Below, in pieces: positions 28,294 to 47,600 of a stretch of DNA of 64,000 nucleotides. Each line of letters opens with the position of its first letter. The stretch's first letter is position 1. The stretch lies in NCBI GenBank assembly GCA_014728045.1, contig WJMH01000015.1:22479-86478 (forward strand), in the 5' to 3' direction. The translations under genes were made by a program, and so were the position numbers. The stretch is from Candidatus Omnitrophota bacterium (GTDB lineage Bacteria > Omnitrophota > Gorgyraeia > Tantalellales > Tantalellaceae). The notes under the pieces were generated by a model that made no database searches, was not told the DNA's origin, and saw nothing but the letters and a program-made list of their open reading frames with translations.

Positions 28294-31200
28294 TCATGCT
28301 CTGGCCAGCATGGTCTTGATGCTGTCCATCAGATCCCTGAGCCTTTCCTTGTCCAGCTCCTCGGCATCCGGGACGAGCTTTATGACCACCATCCTGTCAC
28401 TTCCGAAAAGCATGCGGCACTCCTCCGCGGAAAGGTCCCTGGAGGAGACGACATTGGGTATCATCCGGTAATTGCGCTTGAGGGTCTCCGGATCCCACTG
28501 CAGGTACTTGCCGATCGCGAAGAGCATTATGTCCAGGAGAGGCAGGTATGCCGCCTCCGGGAATTCACTATCGTCTATCCCCGCTATCACTGACCTCCCC
28601 TGAAAGGAGCTGTAGTAGGCGGTGTTCTTATTGCTGGTAATGACAATGAGGTTGTCCGGGTCCACCGCTCCTTTGGAAGGATCGGTTATGTTCGAAACCC
28701 GGCGGGCCAGGTTGCGGCCCTCTCCCTTTATGATCTCCAGATTCTTGAAGAACCTTTCCAGGTCCTCGTTGTTATCCACTATCGTCGGCAGGAATTTAGC
28801 CAGATCCCTCAGGCAGTCGTTTATCTCGCCGCTTCCCAGGTCGAGATCAAGGGCCAGCACGACCCTTTCCTTTTTGCTGATAGCGGCTATGAGCGCGTTC
28901 ACGAAGGAGGGGATAAGCTTCTCGAGGTCCGGCACCGAACCCGTGCCGCTACTTATACCCTCTTCGATACCGAAAAGGTCCCTGCTGAGTGCCTCGTGTA
29001 AAGTGTCTATATACTCACCCGGCGCCAGCGCATCTTTTATGTGTTCGTAATCGGGAACATATCTTGGATATTTGTCAGAAGGATCTGGTATATGTTTCTT
29101 AAGTCCTTCTGCAAGGGACGGCGAGATGTCCGATAAAAAGACGATCTTGCCCGCGTGCTCAGGGAATTCCTTTTCGAGAGTCTCGGCGATGAAGCCGGAA
29201 GGAGCCACGATGAATTCGGAACCCTCGGCGGTCCCGGCCGTTATCTGCCTGGTGAGGAAATCTTCGACGAATCCGGGGGCCATCCCCTTCCGGATGCAGG
29301 CTGTGACCAGCTGCCTGTGGGGTTTACCCGAAGAAGGATCGGCCACGCGCAATCCGCAGGATAAGGCGTTTACATTGCTGAAGACGGGATTACGGGATAT
29401 GATATCCTTGGCTATGACCTCCATGAGGAAGCTTCTCTGAGCGTTAAGCACGCAGGTAAAAAGGATATCCGCCCCTTCCCCGTTAGCGAGCTTCTCTTTA
29501 AGCCGTGCCGCGTTCCTGGCGGACCTGATAGAAAGGTCCTCGAATTTTTTCACGGGTATGTCCTCGCTCTCGGATACTTCGAACTTTATGGGTATGTGCC
29601 TGGTCTTCCCGGGATCATCTTGCGGTGATCTGTCTTTACCGGCATCGGCCAGAGAGGCGGGCGCGTAATCGGGATTATCTACCGTGGGGGTATCCCCGTA
29701 TACATCCTGGTTGATGTTCTCGTGACGCAAACGTGCCATAGCGTAGGAAATAATGTTAAAAAGCACCGTCGTGACTACAAGCGCCCCCGCAGGCCACTGG
29801 ACGTGCGCGGAATGCGCAAGTCCGCCACCGAGCATGGAAACGATCATCAGGTTGAAGCCGGCAACGTAAACAGGCGCTTTGTAAGCGTACTTGAGCCGGC
29901 CCCATAAGGTCTTGCCCTTCGGCGCCCTGAAAAGGTTCGGGGTATGAAGCGCTACGAACAGAGCATACATTCCCGACATGCCGGCTATAAGGGTGAATAT
30001 GCCTATGACGCTGGCCGATACGAGCGAAGAAAGTACGGCAAATGGAAGAAGCGTGAAGATCCTCTCCTCCACCCTCGGCCCGACCTCAAGGGAATATTCC
30101 CACATGGCAAGGTCAGGATCGACTATCCTCTTAAGCAGCCTGACCGTCGCCGGGGCCGCGCTGTTAAAAGTGCCGGGTTTCTCATCCGAACTGATGGGTC
30201 CGGCGGCCACGGCATCGTTATTGACGTTCTCGTGGCGCAGAAGCGCCATCGCGTAGGATATAATGTTAAAAAGCACCGTCGTGAATATCAGTGCTCCCGT
30301 CGGCCACTGGGCGTGCGCGGAATGCGCAAGTCCTCCACCGAGCATGGAGACGATCATCAGGTTGAAACCGGTGACATATACAGGCGCCTTGAAGGCGTAC
30401 CTGATCCTCTCCCAAAGGCTGCTGCCTTTGTGGGCCCTGAAGATATTGGGCGTATGCATGGCCACGAAGAGCGAGTAAACAGCAGCCATGCCGATTATCA
30501 GGGTGCCTATTCCTATCACGCTGGCGGATACCAGCGAGGAAAGAACGGCAAAGGGAATTAGAGTGAAGATCTTCTCCTCGGTCCTCGGTCCGGCCCCTAT
30601 CGCGTACTGCCAGAAAGAGGAATCCGGGTCGACGATCCTCTTGATAAGATAAACGGCCGATGGTGCGTTACCGGCACCCTTCTCGCCCTCGGGGTTGAAG
30701 ATATCACCCTTGAGCGTCCTTCTCTGGGTGGCTTTAAAGATCAGTTCCTGGGTAAGCTTGTACCTGAGGCTGTTTATCTCCTTGAACCTCCTGCGATCGG
30801 TATTGGTAAGCTCCCCTACGCCGACCATCTCCCGGGGCAGGATCTCCTCTATGGGCTTTCGGGCCTTCATGTCCTGTTCTCTCAGCTTAAGAGAGGTCTT
30901 GTACTTTTCCAGAGCCGAATCAAAGTTCTTGACGTAATGTTCCGCTATTCCGTAGCTCAGGTAGTATTCCTTGACCCTGGGGTCACCCTCGGGCAGCATG
31001 TTCACGGCCTGCTGGAAAGCCTCCAGGGCTGCATCGTGAAAATGCCAGAAGAATTCGGCCCTGGCGAGCGTATAATGATCGGCGGCCACGTCGCTTCCGT
31101 TCATCTGTTTGCTCTTGACATCATCCCTGACTATCAGCAGCGTAAGGTACTGCCTGACTTTAAGGAAGCTGCCGGGAGCGATCTGGCAGAACTCCGCGAT

Positions 31201-33828
31201 AAGCTGGTTTATGGCGAGCATCTCTTTCCTGCTCTCCTCGCCGGTGGAGCGGGAAGCTATCCTCTGGGAAACCTCCTGAGCTATCTCCTGCAGGGCCCGG
31301 GCCAGTTCCTCGTAATCTTCCGAGACCCAATTCTTCAGCCTCTGTATCTCGAAATTGAGGCTGAAACCCCATTCAAGTTCGCGCAGGATGCTGAAAACTA
31401 TGGGACGAAGTTCTTCCTTGATCTTTGAGATGTCACCGGTGTAATTCCTTGAATCAAGCCTGAAGACCGCGTCCAGCACGTTACGGGTATCAAGGGGAGG
31501 TTCTGCGGCGAGGATCCTGTCTTTTTTCTTTTTGTCCTTTTCTCCGGAACTGCCGGTTTCCTTCCCGGCGTCCTTCTGGCGGACCCCGAACATGAGCTTG
31601 ATCATCCTCATTATGTACTGCAATAGATCGAACGATATATGCACGGCCCGGTAGGCGTATTTCATGGCCTTTATCGCTTCTTCCCGCTTTTTCGGATCGT
31701 CCATATCTTTTTCCTCGGGTTTTTTCTCTTTCTCTGGCTCATCAGGCTTTTTGACCTCTTCTGCCGCCCTCGCGCGGGAGCTCATCTTTTTCCTGTTAGC
31801 GATGAGCCTTACCATTACGACCACTGCCAGAGAAAGGCCGAACCACGGTATCGGCAGGAACATGGAAAGCCCTACAGATATTATGACAGTAAGTCCCGCG
31901 ACCAGCAAGAAATTCTTCCATCCCGTCCAGTTCTTTATAAGAAGCGCCGCGAAAAGCGTGACCGGAACGACGATAGCTATACCCACGGTGATGATATTTA
32001 CCGGCATCACCATGTAAAGTATACCTGAAAGAAGAAGAGCGCTCGTGAAAGTGATCAGGACGCTCTTCCAGTTTATCGCTCTGACCCTGTCCCAGAAGGA
32101 AAGTCTTATCCTCAAGGAGGCCTCTTTCTTTTCGGGGCTATCTTCTTCGGGGGCCTTTTCTTTCTCAGGCGCCTTAGCGCTTTCCGAGGACGGTTTCTCT
32201 TCAGCGGGGCTTTCTTCGGTGCCGAGTATGGCACGCAGCTTGCTGATAACGGCCCTTATGCCTTCATCCTCCTTCAAAAGGTCAGAGGCGGAGTTCTTTT
32301 TCATGAAGCTTTCATGCTTTGCGAGAAGCTGCTGTATAACCTCCCTCAGCTTCTCCATCTCATCCGGCGTGAGCTTATCGTCCATGCCTTTCTGTCCGAG
32401 TATCTTCGTGCCCTTTTCCCAGGCGACTTCCATCTCCCAGATCCAGCTGAGCCTTGCGAAAATATACCGGTACTCTTCCGCGAGCGCTCGGAGCGTCTTC
32501 ATAGCCATCTTGCGGCTACCCGGGAAAAGACGCGACTGCTTGAGCATGTACTGGCGCTTGATCCATTCGAAATACTGCTTATATAAGGTAAAGAAATGCG
32601 AGGCATCCTGAGGTCCCGTCTTCTTGAGGAAATCCTGCTGCTTGAACTTCTCGAGCTGTTCGCCGATCTCGGTGCTGCTTCTGGCCTGGTCCGGGAACGG
32701 GTCACACCTGTCCCAGAGGACGTTTTTGAGCACGATGGAGAGTTCCCCGTCCCGGTGTCCCGCGATGCGGTCGCCTTCGATCGCCTCGTAATTCTCCGGG
32801 AAAAGCTTCACCTGTATGGCACGCGCCCTTTCATGCCCGAAATAAGGACATATCATTTCGTGAAAAATATATTCCTGCAGCAGGGGTTCGTCCATCTCTA
32901 TGAGGTCCAGTACCTGCGTGCAGAGTCCTATTGTATCGGGATAATCATCTTTCAGTTTCGAGAAAAGCGTATCGATCGGTCCGGTGTGGGCAGTAAACCC
33001 CGTCAGTTCGACGCCGGACCCTGAAGTGGTATTGAACCCGAGAAGCCAGTTATGGGGCCTGGTCGGCTCCTGCCTGTCGGTCAGGACCACCGCGCTGAAC
33101 TCAAGGAACTTTGAAGATGCGGAAAGTTCCACGACCTGCTGCAGTTTCTTTCTGGTCCACGCGTCTATCTGAGCTTTCTGTATCCTTTTGTCGAGCTTCT
33201 TCTCAATCCCTTTGACCCGTTTGATCAGGCGGTGCCTCAGATCCGCCGGCGGATTGACGTTCTCGACCAGAGCTTCATGTATCCGGTGGGCTTCATTCTT
33301 GTTCTCGACCCTGGTGACGAACCCGCGTTCGTCAGGAGGCTCGAGTACCAGCTGCCGCATCAGGTATTCGCCTACTTTCTCCTGGCTCTGGACTTGGCAA
33401 GAAGAACCCGGGTCACTGGACCCGGGTATTTTAGGGTTGAAATATCTTATCCTGTAAGGACCGATCCCGATCGATACCTCACCGGAGGCCTCTGAACCGG
33501 TAACGAGCGGCCACCGCTGAAGGAATCCCGCCGGGATGTTCTTGGTGTTTTTTACCTGATCAAGCGCCAGCTGCGCGCAATCCTTTATACTGAACAGGTT
33601 CCGGTTGGCCGGATCGGCCTCGAATGCAATAAGCGCGTCGATGACATACCTGGTCATCACCATGAAATAACTTTCACCCTGCTTGGAAGGATCAAAGAAT
33701 GTCTGCGGCTGAAGATCGCTTTTCCGAGTTATATCCGGATTGGCCCACACCACCCCCTGCCATACCAGGAGGATGCAAAGAACGAACGCTATTGATCTTA
33801 CAGATTTATTTTTTGATAATTCCCTCAT
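28294..33828 (-). CDS. giant polytopic membrane protein A (about 1844-1861 aa), function unknown
   Basis: Uninterrupted 5.6-kb ORF. I place the start at the first ATG, 33828 (MRELSKNKSVRSIAFVLCILLVWQG.., a signal peptide); the track begins at TTG 33879. Domain order is: N-terminal periplasmic-type domain, multi-TM region including an internally duplicated 170-aa TM module, a CX5R(S)..DP low-molecular-weight PTP-like module, and a ~190-aa C-terminal domain shared with gene A' (44681-48589). Ends with a double stop TGATGA. Confidence 0.85.
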   Translation of the reverse strand: MRELSKNKSVRSIAFVLCILLVWQGVVWANPDITRKSDLQPQTFFDPSKQGESYFMVMTRYVIDALIAFEADPANRNLFSIKDCAQLALDQVKNTKNIPAGFLQRWPLVTGSEASGEVSIGIGPYRIRYFNPKIPGSSDPGSSCQVQSQEKVGEYLMRQLVLEPPDERGFVTRVENKNEAHRIHEALVENVNPPADLRHRLIKRVKGIEKKLDKRIQKAQIDAWTRKKLQQVVELSASSKFLEFSAVVLTDRQEPTRPHNWLLGFNTTSGSGVELTGFTAHTGPIDTLFSKLKDDYPDTIGLCTQVLDLIEMDEPLLQEYIFHEMICPYFGHERARAIQVKLFPENYEAIEGDRIAGHRDGELSIVLKNVLWDRCDPFPDQARSSTEIGEQLEKFKQQDFLKKTGPQDASHFFTLYKQYFEWIKRQYMLKQSRLFPGSRKMAMKTLRALAEEYRYIFARLSWIWEMEVAWEKGTKILGQKGMDDKLTPDEMEKLREVIQQLLAKHESFMKKNSASDLLKEDEGIRAVISKLRAILGTEESPAEEKPSSESAKAPEKEKAPEEDSPEKKEASLRIRLSFWDRVRAINWKSVLITFTSALLLSGILYMVMPVNIITVGIAIVVPVTLFAALLIKNWTGWKNFLLVAGLTVIISVGLSMFLPIPWFGLSLAVVVMVRLIANRKKMSSRARAAEEVKKPDEPEKEKKPEEKDMDDPKKREEAIKAMKYAYRAVHISFDLLQYIMRMIKLMFGVRQKDAGKETGSSGEKDKKKKDRILAAEPPLDTRNVLDAVFRLDSRNYTGDISKIKEELRPIVFSILRELEWGFSLNFEIQRLKNWVSEDYEELARALQEIAQEVSQRIASRSTGEESRKEMLAINQLIAEFCQIAPGSFLKVRQYLTLLIVRDDVKSKQMNGSDVAADHYTLARAEFFWHFHDAALEAFQQAVNMLPEGDPRVKEYYLSYGIAEHYVKNFDSALEKYKTSLKLREQDMKARKPIEEILPREMVGVGELTNTDRRRFKEINSLRYKLTQELIFKATQRRTLKGDIFNPEGEKGAGNAPSAVYLIKRIVDPDSSFWQYAIGAGPRTEEKIFTLIPFAVLSSLVSASVIGIGTLIIGMAAVYSLFVAMHTPNIFRAHKGSSLWERIRYAFKAPVYVTGFNLMIVSMLGGGLAHSAHAQWPTGALIFTTVLFNIISYAMALLRHENVNNDAVAAGPISSDEKPGTFNSAAPATVRLLKRIVDPDLAMWEYSLEVGPRVEERIFTLLPFAVLSSLVSASVIGIFTLIAGMSGMYALFVALHTPNLFRAPKGKTLWGRLKYAYKAPVYVAGFNLMIVSMLGGGLAHSAHVQWPAGALVVTTVLFNIISYAMARLRHENINQDVYGDTPTVDNPDYAPASLADAGKDRSPQDDPGKTRHIPIKFEVSESEDIPVKKFEDLSIRSARNAARLKEKLANGEGADILFTCVLNAQRSFLMEVIAKDIISRNPVFSNVNALSCGLRVADPSSGKPHRQLVTACIRKGMAPGFVEDFLTRQITAGTAEGSEFIVAPSGFIAETLEKEFPEHAGKIVFLSDISPSLAEGLKKHIPDPSDKYPRYVPDYEHIKDALAPGEYIDTLHEALSRDLFGIEEGISSGTGSVPDLEKLIPSFVNALIAAISKKERVVLALDLDLGSGEINDCLRDLAKFLPTIVDNNEDLERFFKNLEIIKGEGRNLARRVSNITDPSKGAVDPDNLIVITSNKNTAYYSSFQGRSVIAGIDDSEFPEAAYLPLLDIMLFAIGKYLQWDPETLKRNYRMIPNVVSSRDLSAEECRMLFGSDRMVVIKLVPDAEELDKERLRDLMDSIKTMLARA
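29690..30665 (-). repeat. intragenic tandem duplication (2 x ~510 bp) inside giant gene A
   Basis: Two DNA copies offset by 510 bp (for example GTTCTCGTGACGCAAACGTGCCATAGCGTAGG at 29716 versus GTTCTCGTGGCGCAGAAGCGCCATCGCGTAGG at 30226). They encode two ~150-aa TM modules (RIVDPD..FAVLSSLVSASVIGI..GFNLMIVSMLGGGLAHSAH..FNIISYAM) about 75-80% identical. Confidence 0.8.
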
Positions 33829-33879
33829 ATCGACAATACCTACACCTACCCCCCCGTAGCCTTTTGTAAGCTTTAACAA

Positions 33880-34070: not shown

Positions 34071-37000
34071 TTAGAGCGATACCGCGACCGCTTCCTGCAT
34101 CATCTGCCAGTCGCGTATCTGCTCGTAATCTACAGCGCGTATCTTCAGAAAGAGCTTGTCCAGTAAAGTATTGATATCCTCTACCCCGGCAAGCTGATCG
34201 GCAGCCTCTTTTCCGGAGATACGTGTAAGAAGGTCCTTGATATAATCAATACCCATACGCCTGGCATCCGGGTTGGTAGCGTTAAGACAGAATGCTATCT
34301 GCCTGGCGAGAACGAACCGCACCGCTATGTCCGGGGGCCTCATTCTCCCCGTCTCCGGGTCCAGACCGTCGGTATAGGCATCTTTTACGAAGGTTACGTT
34401 CTCGTTGGCTCTGTATTCCTTGAAGAGATCGTTTTCGTTCACCACCTCTGCCATCTCGAGGCCTTCCATCTGGGGTGTGTATGAAACTATCCTGCCGCCT
34501 TCGGGCAGTGTCCGGGTCGCCCTCTCAAGTGCCTTAAGGTATTCCTTGGCCGTCGCGTCAGTGTCACCGGGTATTATCTTATAGGTTATTATCTGCTGGT
34601 TATCGGGTTTTTCACCGAACTTTGCCTTGAGTTCGGAGTTCATTTCACGCACGCCGCTCTCAACGCTCTGGTACGTCTGGTGGTCTTCCAGGTTGTACAC
34701 CACCCCAACGACCATCCGCACCGGGTCGCTCCTTCTTTCGATCTCTTCTCCCGCGCCTATCGCTAACACCTGGCGCGTTGCGGCATTGTCCCCTTGAGGG
34801 GCTTCACCGGTCTCGCCGGACGCTACCATCTCGGCGGCTTCGCCCGGCATCATGCCTATTTCGGTGAGACTTGCAAGCTGGAATTTACGCGCTTCCATGT
34901 TTATGAAGTTGCGGAACTTGTCCTTCAGGGTGTTCCTTCCGAAGATCTTGCCCTGAAGAGAATTTGCCCTGTCGGTCTTACCGTAGATCTCCTCGTGACC
35001 GTAATCCATCTCATACATCTCATGAAAGATGAATTCTGCCAGCTCCATCTCATCAAGCGTCTCGACAAGTTCGGCTGAAAGGCCGATGTTCCCTGCGATG
35101 GCCGGATCAAGCCCGGGGTCGTCGCCCGTATTGAATCCCAACAGATAATTCTCTTCGCCTTCCACCTTGGCGTTGAAGAGGTATATGTTATTGATAACCG
35201 CGGATCTGTGCAAAGCCCTTTCCTCGTCCCCCATCTCAAGGTCGCCCACCATGTTCTCTACCAGAGCCATCAATCCCGGGTCATTATCCGGAAGGCCCCC
35301 TGACCGCATCTTCTCATAGAGCTTATTGAAAGCGAGGTTGATCTTGGTCCGCATGGCCTGGGTCATGTCCATCTTCTCACCCACCAGGTCCTTCAGTTCC
35401 TTTTCGGTACGGACCTGGTCCATTCTATCGGCAAGCTCGCCATGACCCACCATCACTTTGGGGATCTTCACCTGCGAGGCGGGGGCCACCTTATCGCGTA
35501 TGGCTTCTGTCTGCTGTTTGAGATCCGCTATAGCTCTGGTCACGGGGTCTATGTCACCTACGCGGTAGGGCTGGTACGGTTTGCCGGCGTCTCGCAAAGC
35601 CTCAAGATGGGCTTTCTCCAGGCGGACCTGAACCGCCCTGAACAGCTCCGGATTCGTCATTTCAAGCTCCTGGAGTCTTTCGGATTTGGCGCTGTCGGGA
35701 CCCATAGCGACATTAAGGTAGTTTTCCAGCATCTTTATCATTTCGGTATTCTCAATCCCCTGATCCACCATAGGCTGATCCATTATCTCCTGCTGGTGAC
35801 GGTACTGGGTGAGGTCGACTATCCTCTCGCGTGTCGCACCCAGCACCTTAAGCCCCTTATCGACAGCCTCCCTGTTCATTCCTCTCAGTTCAGCTGCGGG
35901 GTCCTGTATCCCGGCGTCTCGCATGGAAAGCTGAAGGGTCTTCTTCCCGGCGTCGGTTTTCACGAAATTATCGTACTCCTCCACCGCTAGTCTGTCCGTC
36001 ATACCTTCCAGACGCCTTTTCCAGCCGTTGGGCAGACCGAACTGGCCCTTTTCAAGCTGGGAATCCATCTGCTGTTCGGTAAGTTGTACCGCCCTCAGAA
36101 CGAGCGGCAGGTTCGAATTGAAAAAGTCCAGCCCTTCTCCTCTGTATATGTCAAATCCGTATCCCCCGTCCTCCACGCTCTTTTCCAGATCACCAAGTGC
36201 GGCGATCACCTGATCCGGGCTCAGCCTGAGAGAATATCTGTTCAAGCCTATAAGGCTCTTGTTCAGAAAAGAAAATACCTGGGGCGTACTGCTGGCGACG
36301 TTCACAGCGAGACGCCTTATGAGAGTAACTCCTATACTGCCTTTCAACGAATCAAACCCATAGTTTTCGCCCTTCATCTCATCCAGCATCTTCCGGCTCT
36401 GGGCTTCGTCCAGCCCCATTCCCTTGAGCCTGTTAAGTTCTGCCAGCATGGCGTTATGGACCTCGTTCACTGTCTCGGCCATCTCGGGCGCGTCTTCCTC
36501 CTGGGCCTGGCGTATTATCTCAAGAGCTTCTTCCAGGGTGGAGGCATTACCGAACGCCTCTTTCAGTAAAGCGTCCTGCCCGGAAGTAAGGGTAAGGTAA
36601 TTGGTCTGGAGACCGTATTTATCGATGATCTCCTTGCGGGCATCAACCGTACTCGGGTTGCTCTTGAATAGATACACCGGAGCCTTATCACCGTAGATAT
36701 CGACCCCCCAGCTCACTAGCTTGTTCACAAAACTTTTCAGAGTGGCATAACCGCCTTCTTCGGCATACCCGCTGAAAGGCTTGACCTCCCGTCCGGTCAG
36801 GGACTGAATCGCTTCTTCTGTGGAAGTGGAAATATCATAAGCTCTCTTCCTGGCCATCCTCATATCCAGTTCATTGCTACTCAAGGCTAGCATGTTAAGC
36901 CCCCTGCCGAGAAATATATCATAACCCAACCTGTCCGCAAGGTTTATGCGTTCTTTCAGTTCGTTTATATCAAGGACTGAAAGTTCCCCGCCCAGATCCG

Positions 37001-40000
37001 TGGACGGGTCTATCTGAAGAGCCCTCAGGATGGTCTCTGCCTCTTCGGCACTCTGCACATATTCTCTCCTCGTTCTTTCGAACTGGCTGACCCTTTCCTG
37101 GAGGTCCATGTATTCCTTTTCAAGTTCGGCCGCGTCCTCCCTGACCTGGAGCATGTCAATGATGCCCCTGGCCCTCTGGACCATGTTGTCAAGAACCGTA
37201 TCCGCTGCCATCTGCGTCACCGTGGCCAGCTCGCCCCTGTTGAGAGCTCCTCCTTCCTCTATTGCGGTACGCATTATCCTGTCCGCCCTTGCGATTGAAT
37301 CACGGGCTATGGCCGCGTTCACCTGGTATTGGTTCTTTGCCGACTCGATCTGTTGCTTTATATCGCGTCCCAGCTGATCTTCTCTGTTAAGAAAATTCAT
37401 AACTTCTTTTTTCATGCGACTGGTGGCAGCACTGTCCTTATTGGTCGCATCCGTTATCCTTGAAAGCATCTCCTCGAGCCCCTCCTCTCCGAAATAGCCC
37501 TGGTAGGCTTTATGCAGGGAGAGGAGGTCTTTGGTCCTTCCGTACTCGTCAAGATCAGCCTGCACGCTGTCGAAGGCCTTCCTCAAGACCGCCATATCTA
37601 TCATATGAAGAAGCCTGGGGTCACCGCTGTCAATGGCCTCATCCCGACCCGCAGCCATGTCCATCATTAGCCCCATGACCCTCTGGAATCCCTCTCTGTC
37701 GGCGGCGCGTCGCTGGTCCGCCTCAGCCTGGGACTTTTCATAAGCTACCCTTAACCCCCCCGGCAGTGCCGCCAGCTCTTTCTCAGAGGGCCTCTCAACG
37801 GGCAAAGTGTACCTCCTGAACGAGCCCCAGTCCTTCGCGGCCAGCCCCTTTTCGATAAGCGCCTCAGAGAACTGTTCGGAGAACCTTATCCGGTTGACGT
37901 CCTGCTCCAGCTTGGCGATCTCATGCTCGTATCTTTGCACCTTGTCCGGCCCCAGGAAATCGGAACTATCGAACTGTATAAGATATGTAAGCCCCTTGGC
38001 CCTTGCCTGGCTGAAGGTCTCCCCGAACCGGTCATGGAGCGGAAGCTTGTTGTATACATGTTCCTTCCCCAGAGACCTGTCCATCCAGTAATATACTCCC
38101 AGCATTTTGAGCAGCGCGTCCCTCAGCGCGGGAACGGCCTCCTCCGCTTCGGCGAGCATGCGCGAGTACTTGTCCACCCACGCTTGTTCCTTTTCAGCGG
38201 TCCGTATCCTTGCGCGGGTCCTCTCTACCCGGTTACGCAGGTTCCTGGCCCGCTGTTCCATGACCTCGTAGAGCATTCTCTCAAAAACCTTCGTTGCCTT
38301 GGCCAGAACGATGGGCTTGCGCCAGGGATGCAGGCTCAGGCTCCCGAACTGATCCCGCCAGGGCCCGGGCTTATCGGCAGAGCCCTGCATGCTCCAGGCG
38401 AGCCTGTTGACGTTGGAGATGGCGTCTCCGTAATTATCGATTATCTCCTGCACATCGGCGCTCCTGGAATCCATATCTTTAACGCTCTCTGCCGCGGCGG
38501 CAAGAAGGGCTATCCTGCCCGATGTATTCTTGTACTTATTGCCAACGAGCATCTCCAGCTGTTTTTCGAGATATTCAAGCTCCCTGTCGTTCATCTCATC
38601 CAGGGACCTTACGCGCATAAGGTCCTTCCGGCTGGTCGCCGGGCTTTCAGCGGCCAGCCTGCTTAGAACACCTCTGGCCGTCTGCATTTCCTGGGGCGTG
38701 GCCGGAAGAAGCATATCCACGGCCATTTCGTAAGGATATGACTCGGCGGGAATTATTTCAGGCTCCAATATACCCTCGGCGGGTTCGGTCTCGGCCAGCT
38801 CGATCTGGTTCACTTCATCGAGGGAGATAACGTTCATGAACCTGTCGGCGACCTCGGCCGGACCACCCAGATTCTCTGAAAGCGCTTCCATCTCGTGGTC
38901 GCTAAGTCCGAAATAGAGTTTTACCACCTCAACCAGGTCCTGTGCGTTATCATATGTACCCATCAGGTTGAAAGCTTCCCTGCGCGCGCGTACCATTGCC
39001 CCGACAAGGTTCTTGGCGTTCTTTGCCTGCTCGGTATTGACTTGGACCGCGCGGGTTATTTTCATGACAAGGCCTTTTTTACCTATCTGGTCGCCCGGCT
39101 TGACCGAATCATCTTTACTCCCGTAGGGCTCTGCGGTTATCTTCTTAAGATGCTTGTCAGCGAGGTTCTCGCCAAAAAGAGCCTTGAACTCTTCATCGGA
39201 ATAGCCCCTTTCCTGGACGACGGACATGGTGACGTCCGTTACGCGCCCGTCCTGGACATCCAGGTCGAACTCGACCTGGCCCAGACGGAAAGCTCCCGCG
39301 TTATACGCCGCGAGGCTCATGCCCGCGGTCATTATGTTAAGATCGTTCATCACCGTGTACTTGTAGGTCTGGGCTTCCGCCGGCGTAAGGCGGTCCTCAC
39401 CTGGCTGCCGGGCGGCCCGTTCTATATTATCAATCATCTGCTCCCTGATGCCTTCCAGGAGCCTCGCGTAAAGCCCTTTATTGAGTTTCCCGTCTATCGT
39501 ACACAGCTGGGCCAGTTCGTGGAGTTTGCCCAGAAGACCGTTATTGGCAGGAACACGCGTGAACGCGTCCATGAACTTTTCCGCGGCGGCCGTGTTATCG
39601 GCTACTTCCGTCATGGTCATTACCGCCGCTTCCGGGGTAGAGAAATCCACACCGGTATAATCATGAAAAGCGATGTTATCGGCGATCCTTCTCTTCCCGT
39701 CCGCCCCGAAAAGACCTGTGAACAGGCTGTCGGCATCCTCGGTATTCAGATATTTGGTCGCCGCCGCTCCGTGACCGGCTTTAAGGTCCTCTACATCACC
39801 GAATATACCCAGCCCGGCGTTGGCGTTCCTGATATTGCCGGCCATCGCGTCATGCATCATAAGGGCCACCCTCGCCTCAAGCAAGAGTTCCGGCGTAATG
39901 AAACGGCTTTCGTATTCCTCCTGGCTTATCCTGCCGGCCTTGCGCGCCTCGGCCAGTTCAGCGTTATAGCTTCTGGCCATGGCATCCACCTTGTCGGAGT

Positions 40001-43000
40001 TCATGATCGCGTGTATCGCGCCGTTGGAGCCCCTTAACCTGTTACCTCCGGAACCGTAAGCGAGACTTACCGTGACGGGGTTGCCGTCGGCGTCGGTCAC
40101 GACACGCCCGTCTTCATCGGTCACGGCGACTTCCTGGACGCCCCCTTTCTGCAAAACGTACATATTGAGAGAGTAACTGAGTAGATCCACGAACTTCCTA
40201 ACGTCACTTTCCCGGAGGGGCTTGTCCATGCGGCCCATGAGGTAGAGGTCTATCATCCTTTCGAGGGATTCCCTGATCATGTACCCCTCGTCACGGGCGG
40301 TCCGGTCGTATCTTAACAGCCCCCTTGTATCATATATATTGAGTATCCCGTCTATAGAAGTGGCGAGCGCGTTCTTAAGACCCTCCAGGTTCTTCCTTCT
40401 TTCGCCGGCACGGTCGAAGAGCTCAGAGTCCCTTCTGACCCGCCGCGCTATAGCATCGCCGTAGCCTATCGGCATCATCTGCAGCTTCTTCTGGAGGTCC
40501 TCTATCTCGCTTTCTTCGGTCATTTCAACGTTGATCAGAGTATTGAGCGTCTTGAAATCAAGTTCATCTTTTTTGATATCGACACGCGAAAGCGCAGGAT
40601 CCGTTATCCGGGACCTGTTGACCCTGAAAGCGACCTGCTTCTTTTTTTCATCCATCAGGTCCTTGAGTATGGGAACTATAGACTTGCGGTAGGCGGTCTC
40701 CAAAGCCTCCATGAGCTCGCTGAGATCAGCGGCTCCCTTTTCCATCAGTTCCTCTATCCGGTCTATCGCCTCGTCCCTCCTCTTTTTATCCTTCTCGTCC
40801 CTGAACCTGGTCTTTTTAACCTCGTCCAGGGCTTCCTGGAGGATGGACTCAAGTTCCTCTCCCGAAGGCATCCTCTCCACCGTTACTATGCCTTCGGATA
40901 TCAGACTCTCCAGAGCCGAGAACTGTTCCCGGCCTATGGGGCCCACCACCGAGAACTTGGCGGAATGTGTCTCCCGGCGTCTTTGTTCCTGACGGTCTTC
41001 CACGACTGCGTCTATGGCCTCGAAAAAAGCCTTCTCAAGATCAGGCCTTCCCTTGAAGGCCTCATCCAGGGCGTCTTCTGTCATGACAAGAACCCTCATC
41101 GGGGTATCGGCGACGACATCAGCGTTCCTGCGCGTCCTGTGTACCAGAGCTATCTCGCCTACCATCTGCCCGGCGCCGTTATCCGTCTGGAAGACGGTGT
41201 TCTTGGTCCTGCTCCCTATGAGCGGATAATCCACCCTGTACCCCCCAGAAAGCACGAAATACGCGGAATTATCATCCGGAGTTCCCGCCTTGATAAAGGT
41301 CTCCCCGGGCTGTATATATGTAACGCCCAGGTTTTCGCTCATTCTTCTGACGAGTTCATCACGGTCTTCCCGGGAAAGCGAATTGAAAAAGACATTGAGA
41401 TCAGAACCTTCTACCTGAAAAGCATTCTCTATGACTTCAAGGGATTCACCGTAATCGACGACCCCCATCCTGTTCCTGCCGCTTGCCAGAAGCTGTTCCT
41501 GCTCGCGGGAGAGGCCCCGGTCACGCACCAGCCGCTGAAGGGCATCCGCTATGTCCTGCGCCGCGTCGATCTTGCCGTCCTGGAAACTGCTCCTCAGCCT
41601 CTCAAGCGAAGTGGATAATTTGCTTATCTTGACCGGGCTGAGCCCGGGCCGGTTCTGCCTGCCCTCGGCCATGGCGGGAAGGATATCTTCCTTTACACGG
41701 GCGATCTCAGAGGCTATCTCAGCGTCGTTCAAAAGCCCCTTGACCATGTCGCCTATCTCCATGCGCGTGTTAAGGAAGAAATCATCCAGCTCCTTCTGTA
41801 TTTCGGCCTTTCTCTCCTTCTGGAACTGTGAACTGAGTGAATTCACCGTTCTCTGGAGTCCGTTCAGGAAGTTTACCAGGCCCACAAGTTCGTCAGCGGC
41901 TTTCTGTTTGTCATCCTCTTGTCTAAGTCTGCGCGCCAAGGTATATACCAGGTTACTGGCGGTGGATGAAGCAAATGAATCGATCTTGTCGGAGTATCCT
42001 GTCATCGCGTAATCATCCAAGGTGCGGCAGAGACTTTTTGCGGAGGTGATCAGGCCCTCGCTCTCCAGCTGGCGCCTTATAGCGGGCAGCATCTTTGAAG
42101 TAAGCTTAAGACCTCCTTCCAGAGGCGCGGTATAGTCCCTGTCCACTTCGAGCCTTTCTTCGGCTTCCATCTGCCAGACGGCGGCGGTCACCAGTTCACC
42201 CGCCTCATCCGGTTTCTTAAGCGGAGTCTCATCCGCGAGAAGTTTATCCCGCCTGTCATTAGCGCGATAGGCCTGTTCAACCTGCTCTGCGAGTATATGG
42301 TCGCCGTAGATGCCGCCGACTATTTCATGGAGGATAACGCTTCGCCCGTCCCTGCCGATCCTGCCGTCCGCGTTCTGGTACTTTGCGTTTATGCGTATAC
42401 CGTAACCGCCCGGAGTACCTTCGAAATTCACCCCTTCAACTGTACGTACAAGGGGAAGTCCCGTGAGAACACTGTTGCCGGTAAGTCCTTTTACTATCTC
42501 TTCGACATCAGGGGAGATGCCCATCGCTTCGAGAAAGGGAAGCAGGTCGTTATTTATTATATCGTCAAGTTCCCCTTCGGGGATGTCCTTGAAGCTTTCG
42601 GGAGCCTGCAGGCTAATAGCTTCCATCTGCTGGTCTGTCTCGCGTTCATGTACCCGGTGGAGGAGTTCCCGGAGGGGCATGGTAATGGGCCTTCCCTTCT
42701 TCATCCTGAGGACAAGATCCTCTCCCTTTCTTTCGATACCTACGATCTCGTTGCCCTCGGCGATAGCCTTCTGGTTCTGGGTGACCACGATCACGGCCGC
42801 CTTGAAAGCGTCTATGCTCCTTCGATCCCATACGTCCTCTCCCAGCGGAGAGAGAAAACTCGCCACCTGTATGAGTGAAGCCTCGCTCAGGATCCGGTAC
42901 ATCTTCTCGTAGGTGCCGGAGATCTTCCCCGAAAGAAGGTCGAAATACGGGCATTCGTACCCCTTTTCGTTCTTGAAGTCCGGAATTATCGAAACATAGG

Positions 43001-44489
43001 ATATATCCTCCTGCTTATACAGGTCACAGAGGTTCTCCGTGTGGAAACCTCCCGTTACGACTATTGCGGCCTGTTTCCCGCGGTCGGTGAAATTTATGTT
43101 CTCCAGGAAAGCTTCGTCCCTGCCGAAAGAGTATTCGTAGAAACGCTCAAGATCGGCGCGGTATCTGTCAAGTTGCCGGGACTCTTCGGGCGAGCGGACG
43201 GAGATATTATAAACGGGGGCCTTCTCATCTATAAAGGAAGAAAAATTATTTACCCTGAAAGCGTCCCTGTTCTGCTTGTAATACTTGTAATCCTCTTTGG
43301 TCAGGCTCAACGCGAAAAGGTTCTTCATCAGGGTAAGATTCCTGGAAAGCCCGTTAAGGCGCCTCTGTTCATTGTTCTGGTAAAGATTGGATTTAAGATC
43401 CGCTTCTATGCGGTCCATCTCCTCCATCACTGCGAACCTGTCCGCAGCGTGGTAAAGGGTAATATAAACTATATATTTCTGGAGGTCGGGATATTCATCC
43501 AGCGATATATCGGCGAGTTTGGCCTTTTTTACCAAAAAATCATAGAACTCGAACTGTGATATCTTTTTAACCTTGAAGTCTATGGTCTTCATCACCAGCT
43601 CATCAAGCGCCTTCCTGGAAAGCATTCTCTCGAGCTGGTCAACAAGAAGATCCCTCTGCGTGTTAGCCGCCTGGAAGTCAATGCCCCCCTCCTGGTTCAG
43701 GGACTGGTAAAGCAGGTAGATATTGGGATAATCCTTGGGATCTATCATCTGCTCTTTGGCTTTCTGCATGAGAAAGCTTAAGTAGTCCTTGAACTGAAGC
43801 TCCCCCTGTTTGTAGGCTTCGTATCGGGTATCCACTTCAAGAAGCTGGGGGGTATAAATGCTCTTTTTAAGAAGGTCCATAACCCGGCTTATGCCCCCCA
43901 AGAGCTCTTTCGCCTGTTCCTTGTAATCCTCCGACTCCCAATAGACCGAGATATTGTTCATGTAAAGGACCGGGTCTTCTATTCCCCAGAGCCTGACATC
44001 GAAGGGATGGTTGACCGCATAGTATTCAGGACCACTTACAAGTCCCTGTTTTACAAAGTGGTCCGCGACCTTCTCGCGTATCACCCTGTCGGCAATACCG
44101 GTAAAAATAGATAGATCGTATTCCCCGACACCGCCTTCAAGATTGATATCGGTAATACCGTATTCTTTTACAAGATAGGAGATTATCTCGGATATCTTTT
44201 TCTGAGCGCCGTAGTTACAATGCGCATCCTGTATGTGGATTATGAGTTTATCGGAATCGGCATTATGGGTGAATTTCATGGTCCCCAGATGCTGAGGAAC
44301 GGTAAAGGTCTCAACGTTAAGTGGGGCGAACTGCTGCTCAGGCGCGCTCAATACGGAGAATACCGGTTCGGGCACCTCCGCAACAGCACCAGCATCTTTA
44401 ACGGAAAAGCTAGTCATGAAGACTACTATCACGATCAGTGAAGTGATCTTTTTCGCGACCGTATGTGCTTTTTTAATGCCCCATAACAT
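34071..44489 (-). CDS. giant secreted/anchored acidic helical protein B (3472 aa) with embedded cNMP-binding-like segment, function unknown
   Basis: Uninterrupted 10.4-kb ORF. ATG 44489 is preceded by AGAGAGGA with 5-nt spacing. N-terminal signal/anchor (KKITSLIVIVVFMTSFSV). Segment aa ~1025-1160 matches the CAP-family cNMP-binding pattern (..GETFIKAGTPDDNSAYFVLSGGYRV..GQMVGEIALVHRTRRNADVVADTPMRVLVM). C-terminal region has an NYLLGFNT..IFHEM..GHE module shared with gene A. Confidence 0.85.
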   Translation of the reverse strand: MLWGIKKAHTVAKKITSLIVIVVFMTSFSVKDAGAVAEVPEPVFSVLSAPEQQFAPLNVETFTVPQHLGTMKFTHNADSDKLIIHIQDAHCNYGAQKKISEIISYLVKEYGITDINLEGGVGEYDLSIFTGIADRVIREKVADHFVKQGLVSGPEYYAVNHPFDVRLWGIEDPVLYMNNISVYWESEDYKEQAKELLGGISRVMDLLKKSIYTPQLLEVDTRYEAYKQGELQFKDYLSFLMQKAKEQMIDPKDYPNIYLLYQSLNQEGGIDFQAANTQRDLLVDQLERMLSRKALDELVMKTIDFKVKKISQFEFYDFLVKKAKLADISLDEYPDLQKYIVYITLYHAADRFAVMEEMDRIEADLKSNLYQNNEQRRLNGLSRNLTLMKNLFALSLTKEDYKYYKQNRDAFRVNNFSSFIDEKAPVYNISVRSPEESRQLDRYRADLERFYEYSFGRDEAFLENINFTDRGKQAAIVVTGGFHTENLCDLYKQEDISYVSIIPDFKNEKGYECPYFDLLSGKISGTYEKMYRILSEASLIQVASFLSPLGEDVWDRRSIDAFKAAVIVVTQNQKAIAEGNEIVGIERKGEDLVLRMKKGRPITMPLRELLHRVHERETDQQMEAISLQAPESFKDIPEGELDDIINNDLLPFLEAMGISPDVEEIVKGLTGNSVLTGLPLVRTVEGVNFEGTPGGYGIRINAKYQNADGRIGRDGRSVILHEIVGGIYGDHILAEQVEQAYRANDRRDKLLADETPLKKPDEAGELVTAAVWQMEAEERLEVDRDYTAPLEGGLKLTSKMLPAIRRQLESEGLITSAKSLCRTLDDYAMTGYSDKIDSFASSTASNLVYTLARRLRQEDDKQKAADELVGLVNFLNGLQRTVNSLSSQFQKERKAEIQKELDDFFLNTRMEIGDMVKGLLNDAEIASEIARVKEDILPAMAEGRQNRPGLSPVKISKLSTSLERLRSSFQDGKIDAAQDIADALQRLVRDRGLSREQEQLLASGRNRMGVVDYGESLEVIENAFQVEGSDLNVFFNSLSREDRDELVRRMSENLGVTYIQPGETFIKAGTPDDNSAYFVLSGGYRVDYPLIGSRTKNTVFQTDNGAGQMVGEIALVHRTRRNADVVADTPMRVLVMTEDALDEAFKGRPDLEKAFFEAIDAVVEDRQEQRRRETHSAKFSVVGPIGREQFSALESLISEGIVTVERMPSGEELESILQEALDEVKKTRFRDEKDKKRRDEAIDRIEELMEKGAADLSELMEALETAYRKSIVPILKDLMDEKKKQVAFRVNRSRITDPALSRVDIKKDELDFKTLNTLINVEMTEESEIEDLQKKLQMMPIGYGDAIARRVRRDSELFDRAGERRKNLEGLKNALATSIDGILNIYDTRGLLRYDRTARDEGYMIRESLERMIDLYLMGRMDKPLRESDVRKFVDLLSYSLNMYVLQKGGVQEVAVTDEDGRVVTDADGNPVTVSLAYGSGGNRLRGSNGAIHAIMNSDKVDAMARSYNAELAEARKAGRISQEEYESRFITPELLLEARVALMMHDAMAGNIRNANAGLGIFGDVEDLKAGHGAAATKYLNTEDADSLFTGLFGADGKRRIADNIAFHDYTGVDFSTPEAAVMTMTEVADNTAAAEKFMDAFTRVPANNGLLGKLHELAQLCTIDGKLNKGLYARLLEGIREQMIDNIERAARQPGEDRLTPAEAQTYKYTVMNDLNIMTAGMSLAAYNAGAFRLGQVEFDLDVQDGRVTDVTMSVVQERGYSDEEFKALFGENLADKHLKKITAEPYGSKDDSVKPGDQIGKKGLVMKITRAVQVNTEQAKNAKNLVGAMVRARREAFNLMGTYDNAQDLVEVVKLYFGLSDHEMEALSENLGGPAEVADRFMNVISLDEVNQIELAETEPAEGILEPEIIPAESYPYEMAVDMLLPATPQEMQTARGVLSRLAAESPATSRKDLMRVRSLDEMNDRELEYLEKQLEMLVGNKYKNTSGRIALLAAAAESVKDMDSRSADVQEIIDNYGDAISNVNRLAWSMQGSADKPGPWRDQFGSLSLHPWRKPIVLAKATKVFERMLYEVMEQRARNLRNRVERTRARIRTAEKEQAWVDKYSRMLAEAEEAVPALRDALLKMLGVYYWMDRSLGKEHVYNKLPLHDRFGETFSQARAKGLTYLIQFDSSDFLGPDKVQRYEHEIAKLEQDVNRIRFSEQFSEALIEKGLAAKDWGSFRRYTLPVERPSEKELAALPGGLRVAYEKSQAEADQRRAADREGFQRVMGLMMDMAAGRDEAIDSGDPRLLHMIDMAVLRKAFDSVQADLDEYGRTKDLLSLHKAYQGYFGEEGLEEMLSRITDATNKDSAATSRMKKEVMNFLNREDQLGRDIKQQIESAKNQYQVNAAIARDSIARADRIMRTAIEEGGALNRGELATVTQMAADTVLDNMVQRARGIIDMLQVREDAAELEKEYMDLQERVSQFERTRREYVQSAEEAETILRALQIDPSTDLGGELSVLDINELKERINLADRLGYDIFLGRGLNMLALSSNELDMRMARKRAYDISTSTEEAIQSLTGREVKPFSGYAEEGGYATLKSFVNKLVSWGVDIYGDKAPVYLFKSNPSTVDARKEIIDKYGLQTNYLTLTSGQDALLKEAFGNASTLEEALEIIRQAQEEDAPEMAETVNEVHNAMLAELNRLKGMGLDEAQSRKMLDEMKGENYGFDSLKGSIGVTLIRRLAVNVASSTPQVFSFLNKSLIGLNRYSLRLSPDQVIAALGDLEKSVEDGGYGFDIYRGEGLDFFNSNLPLVLRAVQLTEQQMDSQLEKGQFGLPNGWKRRLEGMTDRLAVEEYDNFVKTDAGKKTLQLSMRDAGIQDPAAELRGMNREAVDKGLKVLGATRERIVDLTQYRHQQEIMDQPMVDQGIENTEMIKMLENYLNVAMGPDSAKSERLQELEMTNPELFRAVQVRLEKAHLEALRDAGKPYQPYRVGDIDPVTRAIADLKQQTEAIRDKVAPASQVKIPKVMVGHGELADRMDQVRTEKELKDLVGEKMDMTQAMRTKINLAFNKLYEKMRSGGLPDNDPGLMALVENMVGDLEMGDEERALHRSAVINNIYLFNAKVEGEENYLLGFNTGDDPGLDPAIAGNIGLSAELVETLDEMELAEFIFHEMYEMDYGHEEIYGKTDRANSLQGKIFGRNTLKDKFRNFINMEARKFQLASLTEIGMMPGEAAEMVASGETGEAPQGDNAATRQVLAIGAGEEIERRSDPVRMVVGVVYNLEDHQTYQSVESGVREMNSELKAKFGEKPDNQQIITYKIIPGDTDATAKEYLKALERATRTLPEGGRIVSYTPQMEGLEMAEVVNENDLFKEYRANENVTFVKDAYTDGLDPETGRMRPPDIAVRFVLARQIAFCLNATNPDARRMGIDYIKDLLTRISGKEAADQLAGVEDINTLLDKLFLKIRAVDYEQIRDWQMMQEAVAVSL
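41010..41417 (-). other. cNMP-binding (CAP effector)-like domain inside giant protein B
   Basis: See gene B. The pattern G-E-[IL]-A-L..R[RT]A-[DT]-V-[VI]-A with the preceding beta-roll glycines is characteristic of cyclic-nucleotide-binding folds. Coordinates are approximate, derived by residue counting. Confidence 0.45.
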
Positions 44490-44680: not shown

Positions 44681-47600
44681 TCAGGCCCTTGCCAGCATAA
44701 GCTTGATATTCTCCATTATATCCCTGAGTCTTTCTATCCCAAGGCTGGTAGCATCCGGGATAAGACGCAGCACCATGGCTGACCTTGTCTCCCCGAAAAG
44801 CAGATCGCGTTCGATCATGCTAAGCTCATCATAAGAAATAACATTGGGGATCGTCCTGTAGCATTCCATCAATGTTTGCCTGTCCCATCCCAGATGTCTG
44901 CCAATGGCAAAAAGCATGGTTTCAAGTACCGGCAGGTAAGCACCTTCCGGAAGGTCCGAAGAATCTATACCGGCAAGAGTAGCCCTGCCCTCGAACCTGT
45001 CGTAATACTCCAGGTTATTCTTGCTTGTTAGAACTATCAGGTTCTCCGGATCCACCGAGCCTTTTTCCGGATCGGTGAGGCTCTCCACCCTCCTGGCAAG
45101 TATCCCGCCTTCGCCTTTTATTATCTCAAGGTCCCTGAAGAACCTCTCGAGATCCTTATTGTTCTTCTCAAGATCGGGAAGAACTTCCAGTATATCCCGC
45201 ATGATGGAATTCACCCGGCCTTCGCCTATATCAAGATCCAGCGCGATCAGCACCTTTTTCTCTTTTCCGGAAAAAGCGAAAAGCGAATTCACTATCTCGT
45301 TTATAACCCTTGATGCGTTCCGGATGATGGAGGCGGCAAGGGATCTGCTTGAAGCCTTCTGTTTCTCCTCGGCCCTGCGGATCTTGCCATACTCAACGGG
45401 ATAGGCGTATCTGGCAAGTTCCAAAGCCCTCCGGGATGTCTCCGGGCCGGAAAAACACATTGAAAGAACCGACTGCTTTACGGACTTAAAATCCCCTCTA
45501 TATGCCTGGTCCAGTATCCGCTGCACCTCTTCGGGGAAAATATGCGACCTGATCCTGTCGATATGCGCGTCAACCAGATCCCGGAAACGTTCGTGAATAT
45601 TACCGTTTACCAGCCGGACCACGTCATTTGCCTCCGGATCGTCCCTGAGACCGGTATCGATGGTCTCGAGGGCGGTACTGACAAGATCGGTATTCAGCAC
45701 GTAACGGCCGAGGAATTCATCAAGCTGCACGTTTTCAAGCCTGTCCATATTGACCTTGCCCACAACCAGGTCTTCCCTGTAAAAAGCACCGATCTGCTCT
45801 TTCATGTCCAGGTATATCTTTTCCAGCTCTTTGTCGGTTATCCCGTATCCATTCGTGCTGGCGCTGGACGCCGTCACCAGATAGAACGCCATGGCAAGTT
45901 TTCTCTTCATCAACGCGTTGGAACCGATCAGGAAGAACTTTGTCTGGGTGCCCCCGGTCGCGGGGTCGTCCCCGCCAAGGCGTTTTCCCGTCCATGGGTC
46001 TATGGCGTAACCCTTTCTTCCGGCGGCTATCCAGGGCTTGCCGGGGACTTCTCCCGACGAGGTCCTGCTTACCGGGCGGGCGCCTGCGAAATACATAAGA
46101 GAAAAAAGAAACAAACCTTCGCGCATATGGTCACCGGATACGGTTATCCCGAAATCCCTTGCATCTATTATGCGCATGTTCTCGAGCTGGCCGGCGAACA
46201 GGAGCATGACCGGATACGGGGCGGGCGGGAGCCTTATGATCCTTTCACCGTTATTCTTCAGCACGGACCTATCCAGCTCATGTGGCGTCCTGGTCCGGGA
46301 TATGTAATTGACAAGCTTGGCCCTGAGGCTGTGCTCGGCGTCCACAGCCGACAGAAGCTCCCTGCCGGACCTGTGATAATCAAGCCCCATTGCCGGATAA
46401 TCCTTCGAGATCTTTTCAAGAACCATTAGCCCGGGTATGACCTCTTCTTTCAATCTCGCGATAAATCTCTCTGAGATCTCTTCTTTTGAGGCGACTTCCT
46501 CCAGTAGCAACAGCTTCACGTATGCCTGCGCGCCTATTGAAAGAGCCGAAAGGTCCAGCAGGTCATATGTCTCATCCACAATCCGCATCAGATTTTGACC
46601 GTTCTCACAAAGACGCTGGTAAAGTGGCACATCCGGAGTGTTCGAAGAAAGCTCGGCTATGAGATCCCTCTCAGCTTTCCTGCAGAACTCAAGGGCCTCT
46701 TTTTCGTCCATATCCAGGCCGAACTGGCCGAAGTAACGCAATGTACCTTCGAGGTTCTCCCCGGCACAGGCTCGCGCAACGGATTCGGCGTGCCTTCTGC
46801 CTCTGAGACCGAATTTCCTGAAATTGACCGCGGTGGACCTGCCGTTGTGACGCGCGCAGGATAATGCTAAATTCAAAATGACCTCCTGGTGGTGTTCCTC
46901 ATCAAATCCGAAATTCCGGAAATTCACGGCCACGCTCTCCGGGCTCTCGCGTGAGGCTATCTGCGCTATACCCGAGACCTCTCTGAGCTCCTTACGGGAT
47001 GCGGTGGGGTCAAGACCGAACTGGTCGAAATACAGCGCTACGCCGTGTCCGTTCTGCATCGCCGAGAGCGTGGCGATCTTCACGGCGTGAGATCTCTCAA
47101 CCAGGCCGAATCTTTTGTAATGCCGGGAAGTGCTCTCCCCGTCGCAGGAAGCGCAATGCTGTGCCAGGTCCAGGATGAGGTGCTCATGGTGTTCCGCATC
47201 AAATCCGAAATTCCGGAAATTCATGGCTGCATGACCGGCGGCGACATTTATGCATAAGAGCGCGATCTCATGGACTGTCTCCGGGTATCTGTACGGATCA
47301 AGGTTGAACTGGGAGAACGACTCAACAGTCTTCCTGGGAGACTGCCCCGCGCTCTTTAAGGCTAATCTGGCCCTGAGAGAAGCATATTCGTGCTGATCGA
47401 TATCGATACCGAATGTGCTTTTGGTAACTTCCTTGATACGGGGGTACTCTCTCGCGATAAGTCCGCCCTCTGGCACCAACCCCATAACGAAACCTACCAG
47501 GTCATCATCCCTGCCCCTCTTGAAGAAAGATGCGTACATTCCGTCCATGCCGGATCTGCGCAGAAAAGCCACCATAAGATTTACGAATAAGTGCCATCCC

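Follow-up and report, generated by a model that had tools for sequence, protein, structure and literature searches.

In the 64,000-nucleotide (nt) stretch of Candidatus Omnitrophota bacterium DNA analysed here (contig WJMH01000015.1, positions 22,479 to 86,478 of the forward strand; hereafter the window), three large minus-strand genes, C, B and A, encode giant proteins, and A and B carry a common domain, which we call the module. Sequence comparisons establish that the module is a real, previously unannotated domain that recurs in large Omnitrophota proteins. With moderate confidence, we consider it an Omnitrophota domain family with a minimal-zincin fold and a substituted second metal ligand that acts as a metal-dependent peptide or amide hydrolase, probably as a protease processing the giants. 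The module would then add an atypical variant to the zincin fold class, new but not categorically so, and, judged by the labelled sequences, it is restricted to this lineage.

When the whole of A was compared with the whole of B by BLASTP, the module gave the single significant high-scoring segment pair (E-value 1e-6), and nothing else fell below an E-value of 0.65. Pairwise identity was 33% with 29% gaps, low enough to suit a short His/Glu motif that the two proteins match by chance or by composition, in the absence of common ancestry. Such a match is refuted by the other comparisons, and we give it a negligible probability. The Smith-Waterman score of the two copies was 90, against 27 +/- 4.6 for 2000 shuffles (z = 13.6), and orthologue profiles built from one protein alone recovered the copy of the other (E-values 1.8e-6 and 2.3e-5). 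A hidden Markov model (HMM) of the family detected the A copy at an E-value of 1.7e-29 and the B copy at 2.8e-24. More than 100 columns are conserved, hydrophobic core positions among them, and the similarity also covers the N-terminal strands and the downstream helix, 'R-A..IQ.K[LI]F ... L..L[RK].[FV]I'. It is confined neither to a few residues nor to low-complexity or coiled-coil sequence.

A first-pass annotation of this DNA had described a shared block of about 60 amino acids (aa). The peptide that it quoted from A is the exact translation of nt 32830-33051 on the minus strand. The peptide quoted from B is also present, but it lies at nt 34992-35150 and not at about 35060-35250, a shift of about 70-100 nt. 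The block itself is real but was drawn too short: by the profile envelope, the full domain spans about 120-160 aa. The A copy, at about 160 aa, is longer than the B copy (about 120 aa); it has some 20 additional aa inserted behind the LLGFNT strand and extends further at its C-terminal end. Scanning the window in six frames with the module HMM revealed no copies beyond those in A and B.

An exhaustive HMMER search of 1.84 billion representative proteins with a 27-sequence module profile found 365 cluster representatives at E-values of 1e-3 or below, 179 of them at 1e-10 or below. When a 3-sequence profile of the module had been run against 5.8 billion proteins by word index, there were no matches, which we read as a failure of sensitivity, since the exhaustive search later gave 365. 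In a local set of 164 carrier proteins we counted 215 module copies, 36 of the proteins holding two to four; of the first 132 proteins searched locally with an iterative HMM, 33 had the module. Members reach 7371 aa, and the short members that were looked up all lie on short contigs and are probably fragments. Among members whose source names carry taxon labels, all are Omnitrophota/Omnitrophica, including Candidatus Omnitrophus magneticus. Twelve homologues of A were found in the 5.8-billion-protein set, with the module nearly unchanged in every one, and the module of B is conserved in its orthologues P0014-P0018. Scans of the 27 module copies against Pfam, NCBIfam and PHROGs gave only scattered single matches at E-values of 0.006 or higher. 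No description of the module was found in two preprints on Omnitrophota giant proteins.

The aligned copies define a signature, [E/Q]xxxHExx[C/E]...H, which reads HExxC (HEMIC) in A and HExxE (HEMYE) in B. Over 27 diverse copies, five columns are invariant, corresponding to E336, H340, E341, H349 and L380 of A (residue numbers refer to the 1861-aa open reading frame (ORF); 17 must be subtracted for the deposited model). The His-Glu pair, in which Glu directly follows the first His as in zincins, is kept in all 27 sequences of the alignment and in 204 of the 215 copies. Within these 204, the position four residues before the first His (-4) is Glu in 176 and Gln in 21, and the position four residues after it (+4) is Cys in 86 (the A type), Glu in 76 (the B type), Pro in 19 and His in 3. 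The next His mostly stands 9 or 10 residues past the first, although the loop between them differs in length among family members, from 5 residues to more than 20. The first-pass annotation had proposed invariant His and Glu residues (HEM...GHE). Those that are invariant across the family are Glu at -4, the His-Glu pair and the downstream His, whereas the final Glu of 'GHE' is not: B orthologues have GHG, GHQ or GHD there, and A orthologues GHK or THR. Of 128 proteins with a single copy, 126 keep the whole signature, and degenerate copies occur almost exclusively in proteins that hold other copies. This is the pattern expected if the residues are functionally required, with occasional pseudo-copies arising after duplication.

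We next consider the predicted fold. An AlphaFold2 model of the A module, computed with the 27-sequence alignment, reached a predicted local distance difference test (pLDDT) score of 83.3 and a predicted template modelling (pTM) score of 0.77. In order, the model shows four short strands, a helix, the 'TIGLC' strand, a short helix, a long helix carrying the His-Glu pair, a further helix, and a later helix that bears an L..LK.V motif. The long helix (model residues 84-100) bears E336, H340, E341 and C344, and the next helix begins at H349. The predicted model shows the arrangement expected of a zincin, in which a mixed beta-sheet that includes an edge strand is backed by one helix and joined by the active-site helix and by a helix or turn further on that supplies the third ligand. 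Its closest structural matches were minigluzincins, selecase being among the best, and lower matches comprised BlaR1, BepA, YbeY, the mini-zincin 3e11, Spartan, ArdC, Wss1, ZMPSTE24, deuterolysin and M48 peptidases. The model therefore places the module as a probable atypical member of the zincin fold, closest to minigluzincins.

Minigluzincins (proabylysin 4jiu, projannalysin 4jix and selecase 4qhf) are soluble minimal scaffolds of M48/M56 catalytic domains. They occur in archaea as separate proteins of about 100 aa, with HExxH and a Glu as third ligand, whereas the module has HExx[C/E] and a His, an extra conserved Glu or Gln at -4 and extra N-terminal strands, and is always found, at times more than once, inside a very large protein of Omnitrophota. 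No sequence-profile relationship between the two is detectable. The M48 (HtpX/Ste24/BepA) and M56 (BlaR1) peptidases likewise retain HExxH plus Glu, unlike the module, in which the conserved downstream residue, with which the next helix begins, is a His (H102 of alignment A2; H349 of A, H3165 of B). Beyond noise, the module has no Pfam or NCBIfam match at E-values up to 1, Peptidase_M48 and M56 included. Aligned by hhalign with genuine M48 domains of sister proteins, it places its strand, helix and His-Glu pair in register, but with a P-value of 0.089, which is not significant; we therefore claim resemblance at the level of fold class and not M48 membership at the level of sequence. The metzincin consensus HExxHxxGxxH is also absent: HExx[C/E]xxxGH recalls its Gly-turn-His spacing, but the second His is missing and the register differs. 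The mini-zincin Acel_2062 (3e11; PMC3890501) and the SprT/Wss1/Spartan proteins have HExxH(xxGxxD/H) motifs, a different biology and lower Z scores to the module (3.3-3.8). A preprint motif 'HEXXE' in CLCA1 was rejected as a precedent, because zinc ligation there is the normal His/His/Asp.

Several observations weigh against a zincin hydrolase. The defining HExxH, with both His residues as ligands, is absent, His standing at +4 in only 3 of the 204 copies mentioned above, and the 'QYIFHEC.PE' subtype has Pro at this position, so that the ligand set is not uniform. No sequence profile links the module to any Pfam or NCBIfam peptidase family or to PDB sequences; searches of the latter with the single sequence and with the profile gave only a noise match to PilC (E-value 1.7) or none. 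A Foldseek search of the module model against the PDB gave no match below an E-value of 0.9.

Two other functions are conceivable. The module could be a pseudo-protease or structural unit that has kept a zincin-like fold, perhaps with a structural metal, but has lost catalysis and now serves as a scaffold, linker or interaction and oligomerisation unit, homotypic contacts between A and B included; we regard this as rather unlikely, though it is the rival that we take most seriously. It would account for the substitution of the second His of HExxH in nearly all copies, for the clearly degenerate state of some, and for the presence of one copy each in the products of the adjacent genes A and B. 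Selecase, one of the best structural matches, is regulated by oligomerisation. Moreover, Glu at -4, the first His and the Cys or Glu at +4 lie one turn apart on the same helix face, and the downstream His might complete a closed structural site of four ligands that leaves no space for water. What a structural role explains poorly is that the Glu beside the first His, which in zincins is the base and not a ligand, is as conserved as the His residues. Loss of the signature in almost no single-copy protein also argues against it, as do the many proteins with two to four copies and the occurrence of the module outside partner pairs, for example in P0010, which has no B or C beside it.

Alternatively, the module could be an active zincin-fold metallohydrolase whose substrate is not a protein, either an amidase of peptidoglycan or cell envelope directed against host or prey, or a YbeY-like nuclease. 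Signal-peptide-like N-termini on both A and B are consistent with this, and His/Glu/His or His/Cys/His ligands might suit Fe or Mn chemistry too. Omnitrophota giant proteins have been linked to cell-wall degradation and to an episymbiotic or predatory lifestyle (bioRxiv 10.1101/2023.11.21.568195; 10.64898/2026.06.07.730766). However, peptidases and not YbeY were the top structural matches, and in the proteins examined no module has a cell-wall-binding domain next to it. In zincins, peptide substrates are bound by the edge strand, an element that is predicted here ahead of the active-site helix. We judge a non-protein substrate improbable, more so than a structural role.

The reading that we favour, a metal-dependent peptide or amide hydrolase, can be set out as follows. 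The fold would consist of a small beta-sheet with its backing helix, an edge strand ('TIGL' or 'NIGL'), the active-site helix and the helix after it. A divalent metal would be held by the first His, by the residue at +4 (Cys344 in A, Glu3160 in B) and by H349 or H3165, and E341 or E3157, beside the first His, would act as general base. This would be the zincin mechanism with the second ligand swapped, His/Cys/His in A and His/Glu/His in B, ligand sets that both make competent metal sites. The conserved Glu or Gln, a helical turn ahead of the first His, may help to orient the substrate or the third ligand. Hydrolysis of a peptide bond or an amide is the likely activity. In peptide deformylase, a zincin-like site holds its metal by one Cys and two His residues, with a catalytic Glu beside a His, and this set is able to catalyse amide hydrolysis; it is the ligand set proposed here for the A-type copy (H340, C344, H349 and E341). 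The first-pass annotation had offered a shared metal-binding or catalytic motif as one of its two readings. The near-invariant His-Glu...His over some 215 copies and the zincin-like predicted fold support it, and its remark that the motif is not a classical HExxH zincin was borne out by the Cys (A type) or Glu (B type) at the position of the second His.

The surroundings of the module suggest what it might act on. In B, only 10 residues separate the end of the module from the C-terminal domain. A jackhmmer search found this B-type C-terminal domain in 123 proteins, 43 of which also bear the module; in about 23 of the 43 the two abut as in B (gap -20 to +23 aa). In multi-copy proteins, modules flank enzyme cassettes: P0147 has, in order, a module, an inositol monophosphatase, a histidine phosphatase and a module, and P0145 has a module, an alpha/beta-hydrolase, a module and a further module. 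From its position before the C-terminal domain and around cassettes, we take the most likely role of the module to be proteolytic processing or maturation of the giants or their partners. Its likely substrates would be the carrier proteins or their neighbours, with cuts either where cassettes end or at the C-terminal domain. Given the signal-like N-termini, it might also act on external proteins. In its most specific form, which we advance with low confidence and think unlikely, the proposal is that modules are cis- or neighbour-acting maturation proteases that would cut the giants where cassettes meet and would free or activate their C-terminal domain, a bacterial polyprotein processing carried out by a previously unknown zincin variant with a His/(Cys or Glu)/His metal site. 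The autoprocessing cysteine protease domain of MARTX toxins offers a functional analogy, as a small protease domain that lies within a very large secreted protein and recurs between its functional cassettes, although its catalytic class and fold differ.

Omnitrophota encode, to our knowledge, the longest known bacterial proteins, large parts of which lack any annotation, and the question concerned is whether such multi-enzyme giants work as single polypeptides or are cut into pieces. Cleavage of the Omnitrophota giants into smaller polypeptides by their C39 and S8 domains has been raised as a speculation by West-Roberts et al. (10.1101/2023.11.21.568195). The module, at cassette boundaries and before the C-terminal domain, provides a concrete handle on this question, being small, expressible and mutable. 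If our reading is right, the zincin fold class gains a family that systematically has Cys or Glu where the canonical second His ligand would be. This bears on metalloprotease classification and on the annotation of hundreds of 'hypothetical' giant proteins, and the module merits an entry in Pfam or MEROPS.

The other reading of the first-pass annotation, a homotypic module that links B to A, did not hold as a specific device. The family has 365 representatives, often with two to four copies in one protein, and the module is not restricted to co-encoded partner proteins, as a docking device for A and B should be. The A orthologue P0010 (JGI 3300009431, Ga0120401_1000079, 1-26987) lies in the same gene neighbourhood as A, flanked by aldolase, alpha/beta-hydrolase, SLOG (SLOG/LDcluster4) and PAP2 genes on one side and by polyprenyl synthase, LytB and a chorismate-binding enzyme on the other; neither a B nor a C gene adjoins it. 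The A copy of the module is thus independent of a B partner. Because that locus has one giant gene where the window has three, B, C and the radical-SAM gene (48723-50051) look like lineage-specific insertions. A closer relative of A, P0005, has a B-like gene directly upstream, and the adjacency of A and B is retained only among close relatives. Of the two readings, the metal-binding or catalytic one is the better, and a general protein-protein role of the module is possible.

A second zincin-like element was found in B at aa 620-800, within the conserved N-terminal region of the B family. By jackhmmer it occurs in 53 of the 263 proteins of the local set, and its model has a pLDDT of 91.7. Profile-profile alignment with the module gave a P-value of 7.4e-4 with HE...H in register. 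The module HMM misses the segment at aa ~690-745 of B (score -3.6), local iteration also failed to recruit it, and in some homologues the Glu of the element is Gly. Since it lies below detection by the module HMM, we did not accept this segment as a third module copy. The profile-profile and fold evidence suggests that the element is possibly a distant relative of the module, and it independently strengthens the zincin reading.

The coordinates of these features are collected in Table 1. A and B are 100% identical to deposited proteins of a metagenome-assembled genome of Candidatus Omnitrophica bacterium. The NCBI model of A starts at an ATG at 33826-33828 and has 1844 aa (P0001), which brings the signal-like segment near the N-terminus. 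A, B and C each start with a signal-peptide-like hydrophobic segment; extra hydrophobic segments are present in A (about 10) and in C, and there are none in B. From these N-termini and from hydrophobicity, it is plausible that the A module is on the periplasmic side and that B is secreted. Pfam matches in the giants are limited to an LMWPc-like domain (A aa 1472-1614) and a cNMP-binding domain (B aa 1058-1146). A thus runs from its signal-like N-terminus through the module, the hydrophobic segments and the LMWPc-like domain to the C-terminal domain, and B from its signal-like N-terminus through a conserved N-terminal region (aa 50-790), the cNMP-binding domain and a long unannotated middle to the module and the C-terminal domain.

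Table 1. Position of the giant genes, of the module and of associated domains in the window
Feature	Position (nt)	Strand	Remarks
Gene A	28294-33879	minus	1861-aa ORF, TTG start at 33879
Gene B	34071-44489	minus	3472 aa
Gene C	44681-48589	minus	1302 aa
Module in A	32647-33135	minus	A aa 249-411; core NWLLGFNT...FHEMICPYFGHE at nt 32830-33051
Predicted metal/catalytic residues of A	E336, 32872-32874; H340, 32860-32862; E341, 32857-32859; C344, 32848-32850; H349, 32833-32835		
Module in B	34845-35210	minus	B aa 3094-3215; core NYLLGFNT...FHEMYEMDYGHE at nt 34992-35150 (aa 3114-3166)
Equivalent residues of B			E3152, H3156, E3157, E3160 (where A has Cys), H3165
Divergent zincin-like subdomain in B	42090-42632	minus	B aa 620-800, 'GTPGGYGIRIN ... 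ILHEIVGGIYGDH'; HE..H at nt 42297-42329
B-type C-terminal domain	34074-34814	minus	B aa 3226-3472, directly downstream of the module
A/C-type C-terminal domain of A	28297-29079	minus	A aa 1601-1861
A/C-type C-terminal domain of C	44684-45403	minus	54% identity to that of A (E-value 9e-68)

The C-terminal domains of A, B and C have about 240-260 aa and a common terminal '...D.E.L/I....' helix, and none has a Pfam match. Compared by hhalign, the A/C type and the B type gave a P-value of 6e-4; they are distantly similar, so that A, B and C probably all end in related domains. C is paralogous to A at both ends, with 41% identity over N-terminal aa 35-175 (E-value 2e-24) and 54% over the C-terminal domain (Table 1), and its middle contains repeated 'NFRNFGFD(A/E)EHH' units. 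C was considered as a third carrier of the module and rejected, as it has both ends in common with A but lacks the module. Within A, a block of about 140 aa of hydrophobic segments is duplicated, at aa ~1075-1215 and ~1245-1385 (nt ~29720-30660, minus strand), where 'LIKRIVDPDSSFWQYAIGAGPRTEEKIFTLIPFAVLSSLVSASVIG...' recurs as 'LLKRIVDPDLAMWEYSLEVGPRVEERIFTLLPFAVLSSLVSASVIG...'.

The B family has at least 351 matches, which are Omnitrophota proteins. All of the 120 homologues listed by BLASTP cover at least aa 101-500 of B; 47-54 of these 120 extend across aa 601-750, with coverage falling to about 45 towards aa 750, and the C-terminal domain was aligned in about a quarter of the 120. The middle of the family is variable, with kinases, HATPase domains, PEP-utilisers, M48, GNAT and metallophosphatases, and with the cNMP-binding domain in B. 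With a conserved N-terminal region up to about 750 aa, a highly variable enzyme cargo and, in about a quarter of those listed, a related C-terminal domain some 240 aa long, the family has a layout like that of a polymorphic delivery scaffold. The N-terminal motifs 'LIIHIQDAHCNYGAQ' and 'AIVVTGGFHTENL' of B (aa ~50-500, nt 43000-44350, minus strand), for which Pfam gave no match, may resemble those of proteins of the TraB/Tiki/ChaN type. The remainder of the window consists of chromosomal housekeeping genes, which include MnmE, Mur ligase, PurH, MgtE, UvrD, glycogen phosphorylase, TrpE/G, LytB, polyprenyl synthase, class II aldolase, rubrerythrins and glutamate dehydrogenase.

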